From a virus: a stretch of 11,814 bases of DNA. Of the stretch, positions 1 to 11,814 are shown one piece after another; the stretch's first letter is position 1, and each line of letters opens with the position of its first letter. The DNA is taken from the UHGV virus genome UHGV-0249779. One strand, written 5' to 3'. The notes beneath the pieces were generated by a model that ran no database searches, was not told the origin of the DNA, and saw nothing but the letters and a program-made list of their open reading frames with translations. A program made the translations under genes and the position numbers.

Positions 1-45
1 AGCGGATTCGCGTTTAAACTCTGCGCTGAAATTTCTTTTTTTCAT
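1..45 (-). CDS. IS3-family transposase OrfA, N-terminal 15 codons only (partial)
   Basis: ATG at 45 (minus) followed by MKKRNFSAEFKRESA; the ORF runs off the window. Confidence 0.6.
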   Translation of the reverse strand, partial: MKKRNFSAEFKRESA

Positions 46-117
46 TATGGCACCTGTGTTGTTCTGAGGTGAGCATATCACCTCTGTTCAGGTGGCCAAA
101 TTCAGTAAACCACTTCA
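1..117 (-). mobile_element. 5' end of an IS3-family insertion sequence (IS911-like), truncated by the window edge
   Basis: Minus-strand reading from 117 begins TGAAGTGG (IS3-family terminus) and runs into an ATG at 45 encoding MKKRNFSAEFKRESA, which matches my recollection of the IS911 OrfA N-terminus. The element continues beyond position 1. Confidence 0.65.
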
Positions 118-209
118 GATAACAGAAAGGCCGGGAAATACCCAGCCTCGCTTCGTAACGGAGTAGACGAAAGTGATCGTGCCTACGCGGATATTATCGT
201 GAGGATGCG

Positions 210-890
210 TCATCGCCATTGCTCCCCAAATACAAAACCAATTTCAGCCAGTGCCTCGTCCATTTTTTCGATGAACTCCGGCACCATCTCGTCAAAACTC
301 GCCATGTACTTTTCATCCCGCTCAACCACGACATAATGCAGTCCTTCACGCTTCATACGCGGGTCATAGTTGGCAAAGTACCAGGCATCTTTTCGCGTCA
401 CCCACATGCTGTATTGCACCTGGGCCATGTAAGCCGACTTTATGGCCTCGAAACCACCGAGCCGGAACTTCATGAAATCCCGGGAGGTAAACGGGCATTT
501 CAGCTCAAGTCCATTGCCGTCACTGCATAAACCATCGGGAGAGCAGGCGGTGCGCATACTTTCGTCGCGATAGATGATCGGGGATTCAGTAACATTCACG
601 CCGGAAGTGAACTCAAAGAGGGCTCTGGCGTCGTTCTCGTACTGTTTTCCCCAGGCCAGCGCCTTAGCGTTAACTTCCGGAGCCACACCGGTGCAAACCT
701 CGGCAAGCAGGGTGTGGAAGTAGGACATTTTCATGTCAGGCCATTTCTTTCCGGAGCGGGGTTTTGCTATCACATTGTGAACTTCTGAAGCGGTGATGAC
801 GCCGAGCCGTAATTTGTGCCACGCATGATCCCCCTGTTCGACAGCTCTCACGTCGATCCCGGTACGCTGCAGGATAATGTCCTGTGTCAT
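210..890 (-). CDS. exo: Lambda exonuclease (Red-alpha, 5'-3' dsDNA exonuclease)
   Basis: 226 aa ORF, near-identical from recall to lambda Exo ([20 protein letters not shown]...GFVFGEQWR). ATGA overlap with the bet stop. Confidence 0.95.
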
Positions 891-1672
891 GCAGCCACCT
901 TCTGTTCAGAGGCTTTCTGTTTCAGGAATCCAAGAGCTTTCACTGCTTCGGCCTGTGTCAGTTCCGACGATGCGCGAATGTCGCGGCGAAATATCTGGGA
1001 ACAGAGCGGCAATAAGTCGTCATCCCATGTTTTGTCCAGGGCAATCAGCAGAGTGTTAATCTCCTGCATGGTTTCATCGTTAACCGGAGTGATGTCGCGT
1101 TCCGGCTGACGTTCTGCAGTGTATGCGGTATTTTCGACAATGCGCTCGGCTTCATCCTTGTCATAGATACCAGCAAATCCGAAGGCCAGACGGGCACACT
1201 GAATCATGGCTTTATGACGTAACATCCGTTTGGGATGCGACTGCCACGGCCCCGTGATTTCTCTGCCTTCGCGGGTTTTGAATGGTTCGCGGCGGCATTC
1301 ATCCATCCACTCGGTAACGCAGATCGGATGATTACGGTCCTTGCGGTAAATCCGGCATGTGCAGGATTCATTGTCCTGCTCAAAGTCCATGCCATCAAAC
1401 TGCTGGTTTTCATTGATGATACGGGACCAGCCATCAACGCCCACCACCGGAACGATGCCGTTCTGCTTGTCAGGGAAGGCGTAAATTTCTTTCGTCCACG
1501 GATTAAGGCCGTACTGGTTGGCGACGATCAACAATGCGATGAACTGCGCATCGCTGGCATCACCTTTAAATGCCGTCTGGCGAAGAGTGGTGATCAGTTC
1601 CTGTGGGTCGACAGAATCCATGCCGACACGTTCAGCCAGCTTCCCTGCCAGCGTTGCGAGTGCTGTACTCAT
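887..1672 (-). CDS. bet: Lambda Bet (Red-beta) single-strand annealing recombinase
   Basis: 261 aa ORF, near-identical from recall to lambda Bet ([66 protein letters not shown]...). Confidence 0.95.
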
Positions 1673-1677
1673 CCGTT

Positions 1678-1974
1678 TTATACCTCTGAATCAATATCAA
1701 CCTGATGGTGAGCAATGGTTTCAACCATGTACCGGATGTGTTCTGCCATGCGCTCCTGAAACTCAACATCGTCATCAAACGCACGGGTAATGGCTTTTTT
1801 GCTGACCCCGTGGCGTTGCAAATGATCGATGCATAGCGATTCAAACAGGTGCTGGGGCAGGCCTTTTTCCATGTCGTCTGCCAGTTCTGCCTCTTTCTCT
1901 TCACGGGCGATCTGCTGGTAGTGACGCGCCCAGCTCTGAGCCTCAAGACGATCCTGAATGTAATAAGCGTTCAT
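1678..1974 (-). CDS. gam: Gam, RecBCD (host nuclease) inhibitor, 98-aa short form
   Basis: [21 protein letters not shown]...[10 protein letters not shown] matches the lambda GamS sequence from recall. AGGAG lies 7 nt upstream of the ATG. Confidence 0.9.
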
Positions 1975-2049
1975 GGCTGAACTCCTGAAAATGGCTGTGA
2001 AAATATCGCCCGCGAAATACCAGGCTGATTAGGAAAACAGGAAAGGGGA

Positions 2050-2340
2050 TTAGTGATTCAGGCCGTTACCGCGTCCGTCGAGAAAAACTTCCACGAGCAA
2101 ATCACGGGTATAAGTGCGCTCGATGCCGCGATGCAGATATAGCCGTCCGCGTAAATTAGCTGATGCAGTCCAGGTACCATCTTTGTGTTTGACCAGCATT
2201 CCTGGCATGACCGCACCTCGATTAACGGTCTGCGTTCCGTAATGTTGATGAACCATAAAAACTCCTGCCCGTAAGCTGGGCTGCTGAACATATAGAGACT
2301 TCTGCGCGTATTCAGGCGGTGGATGGCCGCCGGTTGTCAT
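2050..2340 (-). CDS. Hypothetical early-left (PL operon) protein of unknown function; the ORF is open up to 2460 but only via a TTG with no SD
   Basis: The open frame 2050..2460 lies between the putative PL and gam. The first ATG is at 2340 (MTTGGHPPPEYAQ...) with GAGG about 10 nt upstream. No family recognised. It occupies the kil/cIII position. Confidence 0.45.
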   Translation of the reverse strand: MTTGGHPPPEYAQKSLYVQQPSLRAGVFMVHQHYGTQTVNRGAVMPGMLVKHKDGTWTASANLRGRLYLHRGIERTYTRDLLVEVFLDGRGNGLNH

Positions 2341-2541
2341 AACTAAGCCGCCTCGTTGAAGCGACTGAGGTATGAGGTGTTGAGTTGATTTCAGCTGGTC
2401 ACACCGACGTTCACACGTCCGTTTCACCCCTCGCACTCCCCGTAGCCTGCTGAAATTCAAGCTGCAGATCTAAGCGGTCATCGCAACGGTGAAGCGGTAA
2501 ATCAGAAGATTGCCGGATTCCTGTGCCGTTGTGATGGATTT

Positions 2542-2570
2542 ATAATACTTATTGCTATTAATCATATCAA
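2542..2570 (-). promoter_or_regulatory. Putative PL promoter with embedded OL operator
   Basis: Minus strand reads -35 TTGATA (2570..2565), a 17-nt spacer, then -10 TATTAT (2547..2542). The spacer TTAATAGCAAT closely resembles the PR spacer TTAATGCGCATT at 3995..4006. Confidence 0.5.
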
Positions 2571-2785
2571 TACGTATGGGTATAAATCGATAGCATTTGT
2601 TGTTATGCTGTTGATACTGAAAAGAATTTAATGTTGAGGTTTTTTGTGACATTCGACTCAAAATGGATTTTGCAATTAAATAACCAATTGATAACAATGA
2701 AAACATCACGGAGAACTAGATAGGCCAAATTACTTGCCACGAAGATAGTTGTAAGCGTTGATAACAATGGTATTGAGGAGGGATA

Positions 2786-2808
2786 CCCCCGACAATTGCG
2801 TCAGGGGG
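2786..2808 (-). terminator. GC-rich stem-loop immediately 3' of the lipoprotein gene (possible terminator or RNA-stabilising hairpin for the cI-lipoprotein transcript)
   Basis: CCCCCGAC-aattgc-GTCAGGGGG inverted repeat with one bulge. No clear U-tract on the minus strand, hence low confidence. Confidence 0.3.
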
Positions 2809-2814
2809 GAGGGA

Positions 2815-3195
2815 TTATTGGGCTTTAATGTAATTTTTCAACTTTGCAGTTTGCTCTACAGCGCTAGGAATGCATCCAAACATATTTGCGCATGAGGTTT
2901 GAACAACAATTTCGTTCTTATCGTTTCCTAAAGGTGTTTTTACAACCTGATATCCAAGCACGGCACTATTTCCAATAGGAGTGTATGTGGAAATTACCGT
3001 TTCATCTGCCATCTGAATTTTCCAACCAGAATTCATTGCTATCCAAGCTTTGGCTCTCGACCAATATGTATCGCATTGCTCTTTACCTTGACAGTAAACT
3101 GGTTGTTGAGCTTGTGCGGCAATTTGGGGATCTATTTTCTGAGCACATCCAGAGATGCTAATCAGAATAGCTGCTGTAACGAATAGTTTTCTCAT
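2815..3195 (-). CDS. Putative lipoprotein of unknown function, immediately downstream of and co-oriented with cI (rex-position moron)
   Basis: Starts MRKLFVTAAILISISGC: a signal peptide with lipobox ISGC. AAGGA lies 7 nt upstream of the ATG at 3195; the ATG at 3201 has too short a spacer. The gene is AT-rich relative to its phage neighbours. The 41-bp gap to the cI stop suggests co-transcription from PRM. Confidence 0.7.
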   Translation of the reverse strand: MRKLFVTAAILISISGCAQKIDPQIAAQAQQPVYCQGKEQCDTYWSRAKAWIAMNSGWKIQMADETVISTYTPIGNSAVLGYQVVKTPLGNDKNEIVVQTSCANMFGCIPSAVEQTAKLKNYIKAQ

Positions 3196-3242
3196 TGACA
3201 TTTCCTTTGTTTTGAATATACAACAAATAAATTGGCAAAAAA

Positions 3243-3935
3243 TTATCCGTGTTTTCTATATGTCTGCGGCATGCTTCCAATGACTTTACCGAAGATGAAC
3301 ACCCGGTTCATCTCGTCTTTCTCGATCGGGTCCCACGGTGAGTAGCTCTTGTTATCAGAGATAACCAGCAGCTTATCCTTCATCATTTGCAGGCGCTTTA
3401 CATGGGCTGTGTCGTCGTACAGAAACGCATAGATACCATCACCGTCGAAAGATTTAACAGTGATATCAACGAACAAAAGATCACCTGGTTCGATCGTTCC
3501 TGACATGCTGTCACCGCGTACGTTAATGATGCGGATATTTTCTGCCTTCCTGCCATCGAACATGTGACGAGCATCGTCAAACGAGTACTCAACCGAGCGT
3601 AGAACTTCTACAAACTCACGATTGATGACACCCGGCCCGGCACTGACTTCTATATCAAGAACGTCAATCTTGAAGTATTTGGAATGGCTGACAGCAGGCT
3701 TCCCTGATTGTTGACCGTCATTTCTCATCGGGCCTATGCCTGATGAGAGCCACTCTGTTCGAACACCCAATGCATTAGCTATTTCAACAATTTTTGTTGA
3801 GCCGCGCGCGTTGCCGCTTGTCAGTCTCCAGATTGTGGGTTGAGCTACGCCAGACGCCTTTGCAAGAGCGCCTTGAGACATTCCAGATTGTTCCATCGCT
3901 AGGTTTAAGCGATCAGCAAGAGTTTCTTTTTTCAT
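3243..3935 (-). CDS. cI: CI-type prophage repressor (N-terminal HTH, C-terminal LexA-like S24 autopeptidase domain)
   Basis: HTH-like segment MSQGALAKASGVAQPTIWRL. C-terminal domain carries the GDSM serine motif and a downstream lysine (HVKRL), typical of S24 self-cleaving repressors. The ATG at 3935 is preferred over the TTG at 3971. A TATAAAT -10 sits 8 nt upstream of the ATG, consistent with a leaderless PRM transcript as in lambda. Confidence 0.85.
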   Translation of the reverse strand: MKKETLADRLNLAMEQSGMSQGALAKASGVAQPTIWRLTSGNARGSTKIVEIANALGVRTEWLSSGIGPMRNDGQQSGKPAVSHSKYFKIDVLDIEVSAGPGVINREFVEVLRSVEYSFDDARHMFDGRKAENIRIINVRGDSMSGTIEPGDLLFVDITVKSFDGDGIYAFLYDDTAHVKRLQMMKDKLLVISDNKSYSPWDPIEKDEMNRVFIFGKVIGSMPQTYRKHG

Positions 3936-4045
3936 AAGTTTTAATTTATACGCTTGCGTATTGATGGTCAAAACACGTTTTGCTATTGATTGGGTTAATG
4001 CGCATTGCTATTATCTATTCATTGTAATACCAATAGGAATTGATA
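3936..4045. promoter_or_regulatory. Divergent immunity control region (OR operators, PR and PRM)
   Basis: PR candidate on the plus strand: -35 TTGATT (3986..3991), 17-nt spacer, -10 TATTAT (4009..4014). Three palindromes: TACGCttGCGTA (3949..3960), CAAAACacGTTTTG (3969..3982) and the perfect AATGCGCATT (3997..4006) inside the PR spacer. PRM -10 TATAAAT lies on the minus strand at 3950..3944. Confidence 0.6.
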
Positions 4046-4273
4046 ATGACAAATCAAACCATTCAACTCGCAATCAGTATTACAGGTAGTCAAAAACGAC
4101 TGGCAGATCTCTGCGGTGTAGCCCAACCCACGGTTTGGCGTTGGCTACACGGTGGCGGAATTGATGCCCGCTATGTAATGAAAATTGTCTCAGCCACTGG
4201 TGGAAAGATTAAACCAGCAGATATTCGTCCCGACCTCGCACCATTGTTTAACGTGAGTAATTCTTCCGCCTAA
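4046..4273 (+). CDS. cro: Cro-like HTH regulator (YdaS/DUF1019-like)
   Basis: 75 aa from the ATG at 4046, with AGGAA 8 nt upstream; the track's 4040 start is a TTG. The pattern QKRLADLCGVAQPTVWRW...ATGGKIKPADIRPDL resembles YdaS-type Cro proteins. First gene rightward of PR. Confidence 0.75.
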   Translation: MTNQTIQLAISITGSQKRLADLCGVAQPTVWRWLHGGGIDARYVMKIVSATGGKIKPADIRPDLAPLFNVSNSSA

Positions 4274-4303
4274 TCTGCGGAGTTAACTGATAAGGCAATT
4301 ACT

Positions 4304-4843
4304 ATGCAACCAATTACATACCAACAGACTAGCGGATTTATCCCGACTGCGGTGATAAATCGTTCTCAAATAAAACAGGTGCCAGGCCACGAAAAAATCC
4401 GTGATGCCGTCCGCGCCTGGTCGGCTGCAGATAATCAGGATGTCGTTGCCGCACTCATTGTGAATGAGTATCGAGCACAGGGCGGCGGCACTATCGATTT
4501 TCCTGATGATGTCAGTCGTGCACGCCAGAAGCTGTTCCGCTTTCTCGATAACAAATTCGATTCTGAAAAATACCGAAATAACGTGCGTGAACTGACTCCA
4601 GCAATTCTGGCAGTACTACCGCTGAAATATCGCGGCCACCTGGTTGAGCAGGATAGCTTCATGGCTCGGCTGGCTGAAATGGAAAAGGAACTCAGTGAGG
4701 CAAAACAGGCTGTCATTCTCAACGCACCACGCCACCAGAAACTGAAGGAGATGAGTGAAGGCATTGTGTCGATGTTTCGTGTGGACCCGGATCTGGCTGG
4801 TCCATTAATGGCGATGGTGACCACCATGCTGGGGGCAATATGA
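4304..4843 (+). CDS. CII-position regulatory protein, YdaT-like
   Basis: 179 aa. Motifs NEYRAQGGG and LTPAILAVLPLKYRGHL match my recollection of Rac-prophage YdaT. Position is directly after cro and before the replication genes. Confidence 0.6.
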   Translation: MQPITYQQTSGFIPTAVINRSQIKQVPGHEKIRDAVRAWSAADNQDVVAALIVNEYRAQGGGTIDFPDDVSRARQKLFRFLDNKFDSEKYRNNVRELTPAILAVLPLKYRGHLVEQDSFMARLAEMEKELSEAKQAVILNAPRHQKLKEMSEGIVSMFRVDPDLAGPLMAMVTTMLGAI

Positions 4844-4929
4844 CAGGTTCAGAAATGGCGAAAGTCGGTCTGCGGGAACAGAACCGACTTTCAGGTGCAA
4901 ATCGTAACACACTCATTGCGGGAGGAATT

Positions 4930-5859
4930 ATGGCAAACACTGCTGAGATATTCAATTTTCCAGTGCCGGATGCGGCACAAAAGGAGCCGCGCGTGGCAGA
5001 TCTCGATGATGGTTATACGCGCATTGCAAATGAGTTGCTGGAAGCTGTGATGCTGGCCGGATTAACACAGCACCAGCTTCTGGTCTTCCTGGCTGTCATG
5101 CGCAAAACATATGGCTTTAATAAAAAACTGGATTGGGTGAGCAACGAGCAACTGTCCGAATTGACCGGGATATTGCCGCACAAGTGTTCTGCTGCAAAAA
5201 GTGTTCTGGTAAAGCGTGGGATTTTGATTCAGAGCGGGCGGAATATCGGTATTAATAATGTGGTCAGTGAATGGGCAACATTACCCGAATCAGGTAAGAA
5301 AAATAAAGTTTACCTGAAAGAGGTAAATTTACCTGAATCAGGTAAGAAAAGTTTACCCAAATCAGGTAAAGGCGTTTACCCGAATCAGGTAAACACAAAA
5401 GACAAACTAACAAAAGACAATATAAAACCTTTTTCGTCCGAGAATTCTGGCGAATCCTCTGACCAACCAGAAAACGATCTTCCTGTGGTGAAACCAGATG
5501 CTGCAATTCAGAGCGGCAGCAAGTGGGGGACAGCAGAAGACCTGACCGCCGCAGAGTGGATGTTTGACATGGTGAAGACCATCGCGCCCTCAGCCAGAAA
5601 ACCGAATTTTGCAGGGTGGGCTAACGATATCCGCCTGATGCGTGAACGTGACGGACGTAACCACCGCGACATGTGCGTGCTGTTCCGCTGGGCATGCCAG
5701 GACAACTTCTGGTCCGGTAACGTGCTGAGTCCGGCCAAACTCCGCGACAAGTGGACCCAGCTCGAAATCAACCGAAACAAGCAACAGGCTGGCGTGACAG
5801 CCGGCAAACCAAAACTCGACCTGACGAACACTGACTGGATTTACGGGGTGGATTTATGA
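4930..5859 (+). CDS. O: Replication initiator O (mosaic: distinct N-terminal iteron-binding domain, lambda-identical C-terminal P-interaction domain)
   Basis: Start preferred at ATG 4930 (GGAGG upstream; MANTAEIFNF aligns with lambda O MTNTAKILNF). The C-terminal roughly 110 aa (SKWGTAEDLTAAEWMFDMV...DWIYGVDL) match lambda O from recall. The track ORF extends to 4840. Confidence 0.9.
   Translation: MANTAEIFNFPVPDAAQKEPRVADLDDGYTRIANELLEAVMLAGLTQHQLLVFLAVMRKTYGFNKKLDWVSNEQLSELTGILPHKCSAAKSVLVKRGILIQSGRNIGINNVVSEWATLPESGKKNKVYLKEVNLPESGKKSLPKSGKGVYPNQVNTKDKLTKDNIKPFSSENSGESSDQPENDLPVVKPDAAIQSGSKWGTAEDLTAAEWMFDMVKTIAPSARKPNFAGWANDIRLMRERDGRNHRDMCVLFRWACQDNFWSGNVLSPAKLRDKWTQLEINRNKQQAGVTAGKPKLDLTNTDWIYGVDL
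5281..5393. repeat. Replication origin iterons: five 18-bp direct repeats, each an internal inverted repeat (TTACCyrAAtCAGGTAAr)
   Basis: Copies at 5281..5298, 5310..5327, 5329..5346, 5353..5370 and 5376..5393, inside the O coding sequence as in ori-lambda. The sequence differs from lambda's iterons. Confidence 0.85.
5394..5440. other. AT-rich DNA-unwinding region of the origin
   Basis: An A-rich tract (cacaaaagacaaactaacaaaagacaatataaaacctttttcg) immediately right of the iterons, matching the lambda ori layout. Confidence 0.6.
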
Positions 5860-6557
5860 AAAACATCGCCGCACAGATGGTTAACTTTGACCGTGAGCAG
5901 ATGCGTCGGATCGCCAACAACATGCCGGAACAGTACGACGAAAAGCCGCAGGTACAGCAGGTAGCGCAGATCATCAACGGTGTGTTCAGCCAGTTACTGG
6001 CAACTTTCCCGGCGAGCCTGGCTAACCGGGATCAGAACGAACTGAACGAAATCCGCCGCCAGTGGGTTCTGGCTTTCCGGGAAAACGGGATCACCACAAT
6101 GGAACAGGTTAACGCAGGAATGCGCGTAGCCCGTCGGCAGAATCGACCATTCCTGCCATCACCCGGGCAGTTTGTTGCATGGTGCCGGGAAGAAGCATCC
6201 GTTATCGCCGGACTGCCAAACGTCAGCGAGCTGGTTGATATGGTTTACGAGTATTGCCGGAAGCGAGGCCTGTATCCGGATGCGGAGTCTTATCCGTGGA
6301 AATCAAACGCGCACTACTGGCTGGTTACCAACCTGTATCAGAACATGCGGGCCAATGCGCTTACTGATGCGGAATTACGCCGTAAGGCCGCAGATGAGCT
6401 TGTCCATATGACTGCGAGAATTAACCGTGGTGAGGCGATCCCTGAACCAGTAAAACAACTTCCTGTCATGGGCGGTAGACCTCTAAATCGTACACAGGCT
6501 CTGGCGAAGATCGCAGAAATCAAAGCTAAGTTTGGGCTGAAAGGAGCAAGAGCATGA
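5856..6557 (+). CDS. P: Replication protein P (DnaB helicase loader)
   Basis: 233 aa, near-identical from recall to lambda P (MKNIAAQMVNFDREQMRRIANNMPEQYDEKPQVQQ...). ATGA overlap with O. Confidence 0.95.
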   Translation: MKNIAAQMVNFDREQMRRIANNMPEQYDEKPQVQQVAQIINGVFSQLLATFPASLANRDQNELNEIRRQWVLAFRENGITTMEQVNAGMRVARRQNRPFLPSPGQFVAWCREEASVIAGLPNVSELVDMVYEYCRKRGLYPDAESYPWKSNAHYWLVTNLYQNMRANALTDAELRRKAADELVHMTARINRGEAIPEPVKQLPVMGGRPLNRTQALAKIAEIKAKFGLKGARA

Positions 6558-6838
6558 CGGGCAAAGAGGCAATTATTCATTACCTGGGGACTCATAAGAA
6601 CTTCTGTGCGCAGGACGTTGCCGCGGTAACAGGCGCAACCGTAACCAGCATAAATCAGGCTGCGGCTAAAATGGCGCGGGCAGGAATCCTGGTCGTTGAT
6701 GGTAAGGTCTGGCGAACGGTGTATTACCGGTTCGCTACCAGAGAAGAACGGGAAGGAAAGGTGAGCACGAATATGATTTTTAAGGAGTGTCGCCAGAGTG
6801 CCGCGATGAAACGGGTATTGTCGGTATACAGAACTTAG
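6554..6838 (+). CDS. ren: Ren (Rex-exclusion resistance) protein
   Basis: 94 aa, MTGKEAIIHYLGTH...VWRTVYYRFATREEREGK, closely matching lambda Ren from recall. Confidence 0.85.
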   Translation: MTGKEAIIHYLGTHKNFCAQDVAAVTGATVTSINQAAAKMARAGILVVDGKVWRTVYYRFATREEREGKVSTNMIFKECRQSAAMKRVLSVYRT

Positions 6839-7014
6839 CATCGAAGGCCTATTGTTTTCGACAGGAGGCCATCGAAATGACACTATGGTACCGTCTTTAC
6901 CCACCGCCTTCTGCTAAGTTTAGGAATACAAGATGTTGCTGCCGTTAAAAAATAGTCGTAATTTCTATTAGAATTTGGGCAATATAACCAGCACATAGAT
7001 AAGGGAGTCGTTTT

Positions 7015-7263
7015 ATGCACGAACTATTTGTGCTGGTTTTGAGCACCTGTGCTAGCCTCAGCAATATGTCAGGTTGTTCAGTGGAAGTAGTGAATGTCAA
7101 CACCACAAAAGAGCCGGTAAACGTCTTTTATAGCAGGAAAGACTGCGAAGAAAGCATGAAAAACATTATGCTAAATCATGCTCTATACCATGAAGTATCA
7201 GGCAGAGAGCCATATATGGCAAAGTGCGAACAAGTATTTGTCTCAAAAAGTTTAATGAAATAA
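7015..7263 (+). CDS. Hypothetical small protein (82 aa), first gene of an AT-rich insertion
   Basis: AAGGGAG lies 7 nt upstream of the ATG. Low GC by eye compared with flanking ren and ybcN. Cysteine-containing with a hydrophobic N-terminus; no family recognised. Confidence 0.5.
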   Translation: MHELFVLVLSTCASLSNMSGCSVEVVNVNTTKEPVNVFYSRKDCEESMKNIMLNHALYHEVSGREPYMAKCEQVFVSKSLMK

Positions 7264-7306
7264 TTGGCCAAAAACGACATATAACAAAATCTTATAGGAG
7301 CTTAAC

Positions 7307-7588
7307 GTGGAAGATTACTTAGTTTTTGGTTTAGGTCATGAAGGCGATATAAAGAACGATGAAGCAGGGCTTGATAAGATAAGCGTGGTAACGAAATCGG
7401 TAGTGCGTTCTACCAATTCCAATGAACCAGTGGTTTACCAAGTGACTGAGTTTAAAGAATTTAATGTTGTGAGACATCAAGCGTTTGATAGTGAATACTA
7501 CAACATAGCATTCGATGTCTTACCATCCCGCGTCCGTATTGATGCTGCAATCCGTAAATATCACCCCAAGAAATCCTCCTCAGCTTAG
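7307..7588 (+). CDS. Hypothetical small protein (93 aa), second gene of the AT-rich insertion
   Basis: GTG start with TAGGAG 6 nt upstream. Same AT-rich composition and orientation as the 82-aa ORF, 43 bp downstream of it. No family recognised. Confidence 0.45.
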   Translation: MEDYLVFGLGHEGDIKNDEAGLDKISVVTKSVVRSTNSNEPVVYQVTEFKEFNVVRHQAFDSEYYNIAFDVLPSRVRIDAAIRKYHPKKSSSA

Positions 7589-7776
7589 TAAGCTTTGATT
7601 TTCCATTATCAACCAGCAATAATAATGTCCTCGGAGCCTGAACAACTCCGGTGACTTCTGCGCTAAACGGGGACGTTTATGCGCACATACAATCCAAACT
7701 CTCTTCTCCCTTCACTGATGCAGAAATGCACCTGCAATTCTTTGCATCTAGCGTTTGACCTCTGCGGAGGTGAAGC

Positions 7777-8232
7777 GTGAACCTCCCACAAGACGGCATC
7801 AAATTACATCGCGGCAACTTCACCGCTATCGGCCAGCAGATCCAGCCTTATCTGGAGGAAGGCAAATGCTTTCGCATGGTGCTTAAACCGTGGCGTGAGA
7901 AACGCAGTCTTTCCCAGAATGCACTCAGCCACATGTGGTACAGCGAAATCAGTGAATACCTCATCAGCAGGGGGAAATCGTTCGCTACTTCAGCATGGGT
8001 AAAAGATGCTCTCAAACACACATACCTCGGTTATGAAACCAAGGACCTGGTTGATGTCGTAACCGGTGATATCACCACTATCCAGTCGTTACGCCATACC
8101 TCCGATCTTGATACCGGAGAGATGTATGTCTTCCTGTGTAAGGTTGAAGCCTGGGCGATGAATATTGGCTGCCACCTGACTATTCCACAGAGCTGCGAGT
8201 TTCAGCTGCTGCGCGACAAGCAGGAGGCGTAA
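7777..8232 (+). CDS. ybcN: YbcN/NinB-family protein (recombination, ssDNA-binding)
   Basis: 151 aa, GTG start with GGAGG 7 nt upstream. Matches my recollection of DLP12 YbcN ([19 protein letters not shown]...LLRDKQEA). Confidence 0.8.
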
Positions 8233-8402
8233 TGGCTACACCGCTTATTCGTGTCATGAACGGACACATCTACAGAGTACCAAATCGTCGTAAGCGTAAA
8301 CCTGAGCTGAAGCCATCCGAAATACCAACACTGCTCGGATATACCGCCAGCTTGGTTGATAAAAAATGGTTGCGACTGGCAGCAAGGAGGAGTCATGGCT
8401 GA
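8232..8402 (+). CDS. ninE: NinE-family small protein (56 aa); not in the supplied ORF track
   Basis: Hand-translated from the ATG at 8232 (TAATG overlap with ybcN): [56 protein letters not shown]. Sits in the ninE slot of the DLP12-type nin region. Confidence 0.65.
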   Translation: MATPLIRVMNGHIYRVPNRRKRKPELKPSEIPTLLGYTASLVDKKWLRLAARRSHG

Positions 8403-8685
8403 TTTGAGAAAAGCAGCGAGTGGTCGGGAATGCCAGGTAAGAATCCCTGGCGTATGTAATGGCAACCCTGAAACGTCTGTACTGGCACATATCCGGCTGA
8501 CTGGATTGTGCGGCACCGGTACGAAACCGCCAGACCTGATTGCCACCATTGCATGTTCTGCCTGCCACGACGAAATCGACCGCCGCACGCATTTTGTTGA
8601 CGCTGGATATGCAAAAGAATGCGCGCTGGAAGGTATGGCGAGAACGCAGGTTATCTGGCTGAAAGAGGGGGTAATTAAGGCGTGA
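8395..8685 (+). CDS. ybcO: YbcO/DUF1364-family protein (cysteine-rich, putative metal-binding nuclease)
   Basis: 96 aa from ATG 8395, with AGGAGG upstream ([23 protein letters not shown]...[11 protein letters not shown]). The track start at 8356 is a TTG. Confidence 0.75.
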
Positions 8686-9044
8686 ATACTTACCACATCA
8701 CACTACCCTGGCCGCCGAGCAATAACCGCTACTACCGCCATAATCGAGGGCGCACGCACATCAGCGCAGAAGGGCAGGCATACCGCGATAACGTCGCCCG
8801 AATCATTAAAGGCTCAATGCTGGATATCGGTCTGGCTATGCCTGTGAAAATCCGCATTGAGTGCCACATGCCGGATCGCCGTCGCCGTGACCTGGATAAT
8901 CTGCAAAAAGCCGCTTTTGACGCACTCACTAAAGCAGGTTTCTGGCTGGATGATGAGCTGGTCGTTGATTACCGCGTTGTGAAGATGCCTGTTACCAAAG
9001 GTGGGAAGCTGGAACTGACCATCACTGAACTGGGAGATGAATGA
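8682..9044 (+). CDS. rusA: RusA Holliday junction resolvase
   Basis: 120 aa, [41 protein letters not shown]..., near-identical from recall to E. coli RusA. GTGA overlap with ybcO. Confidence 0.95.
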
Positions 9045-9181
9045 TGTTTGAGTCTTATATGGCAGAACGTCTTCGCCGCCGCTGGGTGCGCCTGCGCTTA
9101 TATCGTTTCCCCGGTTCTGTTTTGACCGATTACCGAATACTGAAGAGTTACGCCAAAACCCTGACAGGAGCAGGAGTATGA
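9041..9181 (+). CDS. ylcG: YlcG-like small protein (46 aa); not in the supplied ORF track
   Basis: Hand-translated: [50 protein letters not shown] overlap with rusA, in the ylcG slot of the DLP12 gene order. Confidence 0.6.
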
Positions 9182-9266
9182 AGTCAGAGATAACAATCAA
9201 CTAATACTGTTTTGTTGATTTTTGCTTGTAATTGGCGTTTTGGTCTGATTTTTGTGGAGTAAGTTG

Positions 9267-9650
9267 ATGCGTGATATTCAGATGGTTCTTGAGCGTTGGG
9301 GAGCGTGGGCGGCTAATAATCATGAAGATGTGACCTGGTCGTCCATTGCCGCCGGTTTTAAGGGATTAATTCCTTCAAAAGTAAAATCTCGCCCGCAATG
9401 TTGTGACGATGACGCGATGATCATTTGCGGGTGCATGGCCCGTCTGAAAAAGAACAACAGCGATTTGCACGATTTATTAGTAGATTATTATATAGTCGGT
9501 ATGACATTCATGTCACTGGCAGGTAAGCATTGCTGCTCTGATGGTTATATCGGGAAAAGGTTACAAAAGGCTGAGGGCATAATTGAAGGGATGTTAATGG
9601 CATTAGATATCCGGTTAGAGATGGATATCGTTGTTAATAACTCTAATTAA
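9267..9650 (+). CDS. quuD: Late-gene antiterminator Q (QuuD/phage-82/21 type)
   Basis: 127 aa from ATG 9267, with GGAG 7 nt upstream: [21 protein letters not shown]...[20 protein letters not shown]..., matching DLP12 QuuD from recall. The track start at 9252 is a TTG. Confidence 0.85.
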
Positions 9651-9669
9651 TACGCCAATTATTTACTAA

Positions 9670-9701
9670 AAGTTATTAAAAATGGGGCGTTGAAACGCCC
9701 C
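9670..9701 (-). terminator. Rho-independent terminator for the porin transcript
   Basis: Hairpin GGGGCGT-tgaa-ACGCCCC (9684..9701), followed on the minus strand by ATTTTTAATAAC. Confidence 0.5.
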
Positions 9702-9724
9702 CAAAAATAAAGGGTAATATATAA
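9690..9724 (+). promoter_or_regulatory. Candidate late promoter PR' (Q-utilisation region)
   Basis: -35-like TTGAAA (9690..9695) with -10-like GGTAAT/TAATAT/TATATA candidates at 9713..9724, 17-19 nt downstream. Placement directly 3' of Q follows the lambdoid pattern. Sequence-only inference. Confidence 0.3.
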
Positions 9725-9789
9725 CAGAAGGTTTATATAGTTAGAAGCAAGGTTGTGCTTCTAAAGGAAGTGGCTTGAGGGAGCCACTT

Positions 9790-9830
9790 ATATGTTGGGG
9801 AGGCAAAGCCTCCCACAACATATCTTTTAG
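9790..9830 (+). terminator. Candidate tR'-like terminator (long hairpin plus CTTTT)
   Basis: 15/16-bp imperfect inverted repeat ATATGTTGGGGAGGC-aaa-GCCTCCCACAACATAT (9790..9823) followed by CTTTTAG. Preceded by two further hairpins at 9743..9762 and 9768..9789. Confidence 0.4.
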
Positions 9831-9838
9831 TAATCAAA

Positions 9839-10921
9839 TTAGAACTGGTAAACCATACCTACAGCAACGATATCATCGGTAGCAACGCCAGATGCTTTCG
9901 TGAAATCGCTCTTATCAATCAGGTTGATTTTGTAGTCAACAAAAGTGGACATATTTTTGTTGAAGTAATAGGTTGCACCTACATCAACATATTCAACCAG
10001 GTCCTGATCACCCCAAACACCCAAGTCTTTTCCTTTAGAATGCAGGTAAGCAACGGATGGACGCAGGCCGAAGTCGAACTGATATTGTGCAACAGCTTCG
10101 AAGTTTTGTGCTTTGTTGGCAATATGGTTATTACCAAAAACAGTCATGTTCTGGGTTTCAGAATAGGTGGTGGCCAGATAGATGTTGTTCGCATCATATT
10201 TCAGACCAGCTGCCCATACTTCAGCATTTTGACCAGAAGCATTCAGACCGTTGTTACCGTAGATAACCTGATTATTAGTGCGATCAGATTTAGCATAGGT
10301 TGCACCCACGCCGAATCCTTCATACTCATAAGTAGTTGAGAAACCGAAACCATCGCCATTAGCTTCAGTTACTTCATTTCGGTCATTTTTGCCCTGATAC
10401 TGAGCTGCAAAGTTCAGGCCATCAACCAGACCAAAGAAGTCGTTGTTACGATAAGTTGCAACACCTGTGGTGCGACCAGTCATGAATACATCTGTTTGGG
10501 TCCAGGTATCGCCACCGAATTCTGGCAGAACGTCGGTCCATGCACCGATGTCGTATGCTACACCGTAGTTACGGCCGTAATCGATGGAGCCGTAGTCACC
10601 GAATTTCAGGCCAGCGAAGGCAAGACGGGTTTTATCTTTGGAGGAACCTTGAGATTCAGCGCGGTTGCCTTTGAATTCATATTCCCACTGACCGAAACCA
10701 GTCAGTTGATCGTTGATTTGGGTTTCACCTTTGAAGCCAAGACGGGCATAAGTAGTATCACCATCATCTGCATCATTAGAGGAGAAGTAGTGCTTAGCAT
10801 TAACTTTCCCGTACAGATCCAGCTTGTTACTGTCTTTATTATAAATTTCAGCTGCCTGAGCAGACATCGCCATCAGTACTGATGCAGCTACAGCAGAAAT
10901 TGCCACTGTTAATTTTTTCAT
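9839..10921 (-). CDS. nmpC: Outer-membrane general porin of the OmpC/OmpF family, prophage-borne (NmpC/Lc type), apparently intact
   Basis: 360 aa. Signal peptide [23 protein letters not shown] followed by AEIYNKD...; C-terminal ...VGMVYQF with terminal Phe; a beta-barrel-like alternating aromatic/Gly composition. Location between Q and the holin, antisense, matches DLP12 nmpC and the PA-2 lc gene. Confidence 0.9.
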
Positions 10922-11349
10922 CGTGAGCCCTTTTTTTTGAACTATTATTAAAAAATGATGTCACTGCGCGATAAATATTCATCTAATCAATGTGATTATT
11001 TCAAGATGTAAGTTTTGGTTTCTCGTTTGATTTGTGAAGTAGATCTCTATTTTTATCTGAACTTTTTTCTATCGAATCCTATTCATAGCTCTTGGCTGAA
11101 TAAAAATAAATCTATTAGCCAATTTATATTAACGGCTGTTATTTATAAGTGCTCTATAATTTGAAGGTTCAATTTAAATCGGCTAAAAATAACACTGGAA
11201 ATTATTTGTTGGTTATTTGTTGAGGTTTTCTTATGTATTTGTGGTGGTGTTTTGAACACTCGGTAGCATTCTCGCAAATATCATTTAGTGGTTTACGTAC
11301 GTAAAAAATTGGTTATGCTGTTAAGAGTGGTTACTTCGTCACACAGCTT
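10922..11349. promoter_or_regulatory. Long AT-rich regulatory region upstream of the porin gene (porin promoter and 5' UTR, unresolved)
   Basis: A non-coding tract of more than 400 bp, strongly AT-rich with many A/T runs, immediately 5' of the porin start. No specific promoter hexamers could be assigned with confidence. Confidence 0.4.
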
Positions 11350-11382
11350 AAACCCGCCGTAGAGCGGGTTTTTCCATTTTTT
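11350..11382 (+). terminator. Rho-independent terminator-like hairpin about 110 bp upstream of the holin gene
   Basis: AAACCCGC-cgtaga-GCGGGTTT followed by TTCCATTTTTT on the plus strand. Confidence 0.55.
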
Positions 11383-11494
11383 GAGTCTCGATATTAGCTG
11401 ATAACCCAATACCTGAGTTATTCACTGACTCCGAGTCTGTTACGTTTCGTAGTATTCCCTCAATTTACACCCGCTTTGTCTGCGAGGTGGGGTT

Positions 11495-11710
11495 ATGAAA
11501 TCCATGGATAAGTTAACAACGGGTGTCGCCTATGGCACCTCAGCAGGTAGTGCCGGGTACTGGTTTTTACAGCTGCTAGATAAAGTCACGCCCTCACAGT
11601 GGGCGGCAATTGGAGTGCTGGGTAGCCTGGTATTTGGCCTGCTGACGTACCTGACAAACCTTTATTTCAAGATTAAAGAAGACAAGCGTAAGGCTGCACG
11701 GGGAGAGTAA
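11495..11710 (+). CDS. essD: Class II holin of the phage 21 S type (pinholin, EssD-like), with dual start
   Basis: 71 aa, [26 protein letters not shown]...[33 protein letters not shown], matching S21/EssD from recall. Met1 and Met4 give the 71-aa and 68-aa products. GAGGTGGGG upstream of the ATG. Confidence 0.9.
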
Positions 11711-11714
11711 TTCA

Positions 11715-11814
11715 ATGACTCAAAACTATGAACTGATTGTGAAAGGGATCCGCAATTTTGAGAATAAAGTTACGGTAACTTTAGCGTTACGGGACAAAAA
11801 ACGCTTTGACGGTG
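11715..11814 (+). CDS. 5' end of an unidentified ORF directly after the holin (partial, 33 codons)
   Basis: ATG at 11715 then MTQNYELIVKGIRNFENKVTVTLALRDKKRFDG. Hydrophilic N-terminus with no SAR or TM segment; not recognisable as R21/RrrD, lambda R or P22 gp19. Confidence 0.4.
   Translation, partial: MTQNYELIVKGIRNFENKVTVTLALRDKKRFDG

Follow-up and report, generated by a model that had tools for sequence, protein, structure and literature searches.

An ISEc52 end inside orf60a, just past the tL3-type terminator in the pL operon of a lambdoid prophage

In a lambdoid prophage, the insertion sequence ISEc52 has very probably transposed into the pL operon, where it came to lie inside the small gene orf60a just past the terminator tL3. 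The stretch of DNA that we analysed (UHGV virus genome UHGV-0249779, 11,814 nucleotides; the window) corresponds in positions 1-11814 to an entire metagenome contig of 11,814 bp assembled with MEGAHIT at k = 119 (ENA ERZ27263514, k119_49338), whose first 2,290 bases match window 1-2290 exactly in reverse complement. The outermost 117 nucleotides belong to the element and the phage sequence starts at position 118, 92 nt downstream of the exo stop. The IS is a known one, and its position is new but unremarkable: it sits within a dispensable gene of a lambdoid prophage that is probably of the argW type. It represents ordinary prophage wear of a known kind, the significance of which reaches little beyond annotation.

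The ISEc52 end and the interrupted gene

Judged by its nucleotide identity, window 1-117 is the end of ISEc52, a known IS of E. coli. All 117 positions were identical to those of ISEc52 copies (E = 1e-53 in the nucleotide comparison), and at least 80% of this segment is present in 4,640 E. coli records, many of which carry the annotation 'IS3-like element ISEc52 family transposase'. Both the TG...CA inverted-repeat ends and the near-identity of the DNA to the named element place it in the IS3 family and in ISEc52. The reference copy, in the strain Nissle 1917, is 1250 bp long, has the termini TG...CA with imperfect inverted repeats of 27 nt, and is bordered by the 3-bp target duplication AAC. 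The two 27-nt repeats of the Nissle copy are 78% complementary, and the IRL in the window pairs with the reference IRR. In profile searches, OrfA of the reference copy was recognized as HTH_Tnp_1 and OrfB as an rve DDE domain together with NCBIfam transpos_IS3 (3.8e-90); at the end of orfA lies an A AAA AAG slippery site (TTAAAAAAGG), where a -1 frameshift would join the two overlapping frames orfA and orfB. The window holds about 9% of the element and orfA is visible for 15 codons only, but over the visible part, that is the IRL end, the inverted repeat and the start of orfA, its copy does not differ from ISEc52 at all. The peptide MKKRNFSAEFKRESA is the N-terminus of ISEc52 OrfA and is identical to the start of the 100-aa OrfA in the reference copy. 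The transposase is oriented in the same direction as exo and the pL operon. We take ISEc52 to be a close relative of IS911.

A reading made from the sequence alone had proposed an IS3-family end at this place, with its terminus at position 117 and about 93 bp from the stop of exo. The family was borne out (ISEc52, 117/117 nt). The terminus proved exact, in that uninterrupted prophages and phages are homologous from 118 onward, and so did the distance, in an agreement with the position of exo (210-890) that goes far beyond chance. Some BLAST matches begin at 114 instead, where three nucleotides (TTC) agree by chance.

Table 1. Features at the left end of the window (strand - is the direction of the pL operon)
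Feature	Positions	Strand	Basis or remark
ISEc52 left end (IRL/orfA-proximal, 117 nt), IS3 family	1..117	-	117/117 identity to ISEc52 copies
ISEc52 orfA, first 15 codons (MKKRNFSAEFKRESA), cut by contig end	1..45	-	translation; ATG at 45
IRL, 27-nt terminal inverted repeat (TGAAGTGGTTTACTGAATTTGGCCACC on the minus strand, window 117->91)	91..117	-	window sequence identical to ISEc52 copies
orf60a/DUF1317 (lambda), truncated: 32 of 60 codons, 32-residue product	115..213	-	translation and profile search
Candidate 3-bp target duplication GAT (ATC on the minus strand)	118..120	.	expected at the other IS end if the insertion was simple
Predicted tL3-type rho-independent terminator hairpin of the pL operon, inside orf60a	124..149	-	terminator-like site 149->127
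exo (lambda exonuclease), 226 aa, intact	210..890	-	YqaJ 2.3e-30; relatives annotated as lambda exonuclease family
bet (RecT family), intact	887..1672	-	Pfam match 2.7e-33
gam, intact	1678..1974	-	Pfam match 1.4e-64

The same reading had the element beyond the 3' end of exo. This position held, but it is not intergenic. Bases 118-213 are codons 1-32 of orf60a: the ATG of this gene overlaps the exo stop, and the whole interval is coding, with no spacer. The shortened frame is closed by a TGA that consists of the first three bases of the IS end, so that the C-terminal 28 residues of the product are lost. Its product matched positions 1-32 of the 60 in the DUF1317 profile (PF07026; 2.9e-19), which makes it a truncated member of the family that falls short of the full length of 60 aa; the complete 60-aa orf60a is present in the relatives of this prophage and in lambda. 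On the other side of the junction, exo, bet and gam form a lambda Red module, in which a YqaJ exonuclease, a RecT-family annealase and Gam are found in one operon.

Window 124-149 has the make-up of the intrinsic terminator tL3, with a predicted G+C-rich hairpin and a T-rich tail inside orf60a downstream of exo. Folding gave a stem of nine pairs with an MFE of -17.6 kcal/mol (z -2.6), and the hairpin sequence is identical to that annotated as 'tL3 Rho-independent transcription terminator' in phage O276, as well as to lambda. The IS entered 6-7 nt past this hairpin. A misc_recomb feature of the lambda RefSeq record (31266^31267) corresponds to window 128/129 and is also inside the tL3 stem.

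Several explanations for the choice of this site were considered and rejected. A mosaic boundary at the insertion site does not fit, in that a 400-bp query centred there was covered to at least 80% by 175 of the 187 phage records, lambda included; the shorter phage matches listed for this query (n = 4) break elsewhere. For targeting of a sequence that resembles the IS end, in the manner of IS911, a manual count on the alignment gave five ungapped matches out of 12, a number compatible with chance. Targeting of terminators or hairpins by ISEc52 was likewise dismissed. The ISEc52 IRL ends in IMG/VR adjoin 86 distinct flanks, none of which is the window site; flanking hairpins are atypical among them, the window flank ranking 6th of 86, and the duplicated triplet displayed only a weak G-(A/T)-(T/C) preference.

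IS-free relatives and the manner of insertion

Three relatives (L013, L014 and L015) are 99.95-99.97% identical to window 114-10439 and do not carry the IS. Because the window flanks differ from these IS-free relatives by only 3-5 bases per approximately 10 kb, the insertion is probably recent. In L013 and L014, the intact orf60a is followed by orf63/DUF1382, a 71-aa orf61-like gene, a TraR-like gene, an Ea22-like gene, a dATP/dGTP pyrophosphohydrolase gene, ea8.5, a 55-aa ORF and a 66-aa gene, after which come the genes dsdC-dsdX-dsdA-emrY-emrK; L015 stops earlier, inside the TraR-like gene. The 66-aa gene is annotated as torI (excisionase) in a related complete prophage of the strain P470. 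Past the IS site, the IS-free relatives thus carry roughly 2.9 kb of accessory genes distal to pL, together with torI and the att core of KplE1 beside dsdC. The pL-distal region of lambda (exo, orf60a with tL3, orf63 and orf61) has the same order as in these relatives at about 97% nucleotide identity. In comparison with lambda, the window differs in that its orf60a is cut after codon 32, and its nearest relatives differ in that they end in torI and att(argW) rather than in xis-int-attP. In P470 (L019:7048-7759), a DUF1317 gene of 53 aa is followed by an N-6-adenine methyltransferase gene that replaces orf63/DUF1382, which puts a mosaic joint slightly downstream of the IS site.

We consider a simple insertion somewhat the more probable course of events. 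It predicts a partner junction of the form ...GTTGACCACTTCA|ATC|CGAAATCCCC..., the right flank of which was also given as CGAAATCCCCTG; at other lengths, the same predicted junction reads GGTGGCCAGTTTTTGTTGACCACTTCA-ATC-CGAAATCCCCTGAAAGCACAGCGG and ...CACTTCA-ATC-CGAAATCC.... It is also quite possible, at a lower probability, that a deletion or rearrangement took place at this IS copy. The IS end would then be a breakpoint: through an IS-mediated adjacent deletion, or through recombination of one ISEc52 copy with another, the DNA past orf60a would have been lost or inverted, possibly with torI and the att site, and the prophage would be trapped in the chromosome. We give this explanation roughly one chance in three, and the evidence bearing on it comes from the search for the partner junction, from other ISEc52 copies and from the flanks.

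The second junction expected from a simple insertion was found nowhere in the scans, which to some extent speaks for a breakpoint. A degenerate pattern for both junctions did not recover it from JGI metagenome contigs, GTDB species genomes or IMG/VR, and returned two chance matches only, which belong to unrelated ISEc52 insertions (L018, L020). An exact scan of the GTDB genomes with a 52-mer across the junction gave no match, and the exact orf63/DUF1382 variant, which was sought for a partner contig, was not among the representatives returned. However, the first junction was likewise missing from the 5,426 complete E. coli genomes and from the phage matches listed. The lineage is absent from collections that do not contain even the first junction, and therefore the absence of the second carries little weight against a simple insertion.

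For the full ISEc52 copies in IMG/VR prophage contigs (L024-L113), 35 were usable, 18 of which had a perfect 3-bp duplication and one a 4-bp duplication, while the rest had none. That only 18-19 of the 35 have a duplication suggests frequent IS-associated rearrangement, or recombination between IS copies, in prophages, and the 15-17 copies without a 3-4 bp duplication count in favour of a breakpoint. An actual case is found in E. coli ECCTRSRTH03, where an ISEc52 in the same orientation joins an orf61-like gene to a 5'-truncated int between flanks that do not match, and L020 is similar to it. The insertion point in ECCTRSRTH03 differs from ours, and the IS there is associated with the loss of xis and of the 5' part of int. 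Against a breakpoint in the window, no deletion was directly observed, and a flank nearly identical to that of the IS-free relatives fits a young simple insertion.

The integration side of the prophage

The arrangement of the missing side can be read from P470, a more distant but complete relative that is 96% identical over 92% of the window and belongs to an element of about 41 kb. From the left, P470 contains dsdC, then torI, further on orf60a-exo-bet-gam-kil, and then the cI-like repressor, the cro-like gene, ydaT, O, P and ren. The remainder comprises ybcN-ninE-ybcO-rusA-ylcG-quuD, the porin, essD-rrrD-rzpD, iss, the terminase, further along the contractile tail, an acyltransferase, an IS1 and intS, which borders on tRNA-Arg (argW) and yfdC. 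The integrase gene is therefore separated from this side by about 36 kb and sits beside argW at the other prophage end, which corresponds to the right of the window. A 16-nt sequence, ATGGTGTCCCCTGCAG, is directly repeated in P470, once between dsdC and torI and once at the 3' end of argW; it also occurs in L013 between torI and dsdC, 2.93 kb beyond the IS site. The published core of KplE1 is CTGCAGGGGACACCAT, and ATGGTGTCCCCTGCAG is its reverse complement (PMC2951348). In KplE1, HK620, Sf6 and CUS-3, integrase and directionality factor come from separate transcripts, intS having a promoter of its own that overlaps attL (PMC2951348).

Pieces of the argW module are thus seen in L013 (torI and the core, at 99.97% identity), and the whole module, with the core duplicated, in P470 (at 96%); all of them are outside the window. 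By analogy with these relatives, the prophage of the window itself probably resides at argW. The nearest IS-free relatives share with the module of the KplE1 (CPS-53)/HK620/Sf6 type the possession of torI and of the core CTGCAGGGGACACCAT beside dsdC. KplE1 in K-12 is a remnant of 10 kb that lacks immunity and Red genes, whereas the relatives found here are prophages of about 41 kb with a lambda-like early region, DLP12-like nin, Q, porin and lysis genes, and a contractile tail.

Because intS is at the opposite end in prophages of this type, a lambda-style int-xis-att block is not expected beyond exo. The sequence-only reading had assumed the lambda order, with int-proximal genes following exo, and this fails in the nearest relatives, in which only torI and the att core are found on that side, about 2.9 kb on. 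By the same layout, a complete int-xis-att module beyond the IS, which that reading had named as the observation that would speak against it, could not be encountered even in an undamaged prophage of this type. Taken together, that reading is confirmed in what it observed and only partly supported in its interpretation. One should not presuppose the gene order of lambda on the integration side of mosaic lambdoid prophages.

If ISEc52 transposed into this prophage as we propose, an element of 1250 bp, with orfA and orfB joined by frameshifting at A-AAA-AAG and a DDE transposase, would have entered the pL operon and landed 92 nt downstream of exo, within the small and non-essential orf60a, past tL3 and co-directional with pL. 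In a simple insertion, the direct effects would be only the loss of orf60a and an extra 1.25 kb between pL and the distal genes, torI included, and intS and both att sites would be untouched. Provided that the distal genes are still attached, the expression of torI upon induction could drop, as torI would be 1.25 kb further from pL. The terminator tL3 would probably shield the IS from pL transcripts that are not antiterminated, and antiterminated transcripts would be expected to enter orfA and orfB.

In complete prophages of this type, we assume torI to depend on read-through from pL. An IS between pL/tL3 and torI might disconnect torI from pL transcription upon induction, or it might have deleted torI together with att. 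The result would be a domesticated argW prophage locked by the IS, one that derepresses, expresses Red and replicates but is unable to excise, and that is retained on account of its Red genes, its porin and its lysis cassette. We regard such an outcome as unlikely. Removal or silencing of torI by the IS would, if it occurred, make excision impossible, which is a routine form of prophage decay.

It is very improbable that the prophage is instead of the lambda type, in which xis-int-att would follow directly after exo and the integration module itself would have been broken into or pushed aside by the IS. The region exo-orf60a-orf63 shares 97% identity with lambda, and Rb-23 and CEA106S, relatives of the early region, carry a lambda-type xis-int a few kb further. 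However, a lambda-type int-xis-attP on the exo side was present only in such more distant relatives and absent in those at 99.95-99.97% identity; these three, which match over about 10 kb, have torI and the KplE1 core at this end, adjacent to dsdC, and lack an int there. In P470, intS is about 36 kb away next to argW, and the IS in the window lies within an accessory gene about 2.9 kb from the att core.

Contig ends and neighbouring insertions

The junction is real, and it is a clean IS terminus. It was also present in an independent JGI metagenome contig (3300056090, Ga0252435_00676), which matches window 28-10890 at 100% identity and breaks off after 90 nt of the same IS end, and a protein look-up with exo and a short flank reported three more similar places beyond those listed. 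Although the window is a short-read metagenome contig ending in a repeat, a mis-assembly in which 117 nt of IS were wrongly joined to a phage contig with no IS at this position is hardly credible, since the join coincides to the base with the canonical IS terminus (...CACTTCA) and recurs identically in the JGI assembly, with the three further similar places reported besides.

The left end of the contig is an assembly break, at which the de Bruijn assembler was stopped by a multi-copy IS repeat after 117 nt of it had been kept. Because the window is a complete contig that ends in such a repeat, nothing further to the left exists within that assembly, and the end inside the IS should not be read as a truncation of the prophage. 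The right end of the contig is situated just past an essD-like holin ORF; the independent JGI contig runs about 3.7 kb further, and hence this end is probably a repeat break too.

A look-up of the 32-aa product returned ten short-read contigs (L003-L012) from different samples that end exactly at window 118, on backgrounds diverged by up to 2.4%. A recurrent insertion or hot spot at this place was considered and rejected. The base adjoining window 118 carries a synonymous polymorphism, ATC|CGA versus ATC|AGA (seen in L032 and L065), so that a graph branch between co-resident lambdoid prophages can account for the ends at 118. Being explicable in this way, the ends are no evidence for an IS junction.

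Independent IS3-family insertions were observed in the same pL-distal region of other E. coli prophages (P0018, P0033; L002:10869-12117; L021:3205-4418 and 8752-9965). In two of them, the IRR of ISEc52 is fused to sequence within orf63/DUF1382; a further ISEc52 borders on a 5'-truncated int and has no duplication, and a different IS3-family element is present twice, in gam and in the 55-aa ORF. DLP12 in K-12 is an IS-disrupted lambdoid prophage. Together with ECCTRSRTH03 and CEA106S, it resembles the prophage studied here in having an IS in the dispensable early-left genes of a resident prophage.

Some other genes of the window deserve mention. A 126-aa ORF at window 2815-3195 (-) is in the position of N, as the first gene leftward of the cI-like repressor; its sole match was phrog_16082 (unknown function), and no Pfam family is listed for it in the gene tables of contigs carrying it. 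A porin gene (360 aa, Porin_1/Porin_4) at window 9839-10921 (-) is located between the Q antiterminator and the holin, as nmpC is in DLP12. In the relative L013, an IS1 lies between Q and the porin, and the O replication protein has 309 aa instead of 339 aa.
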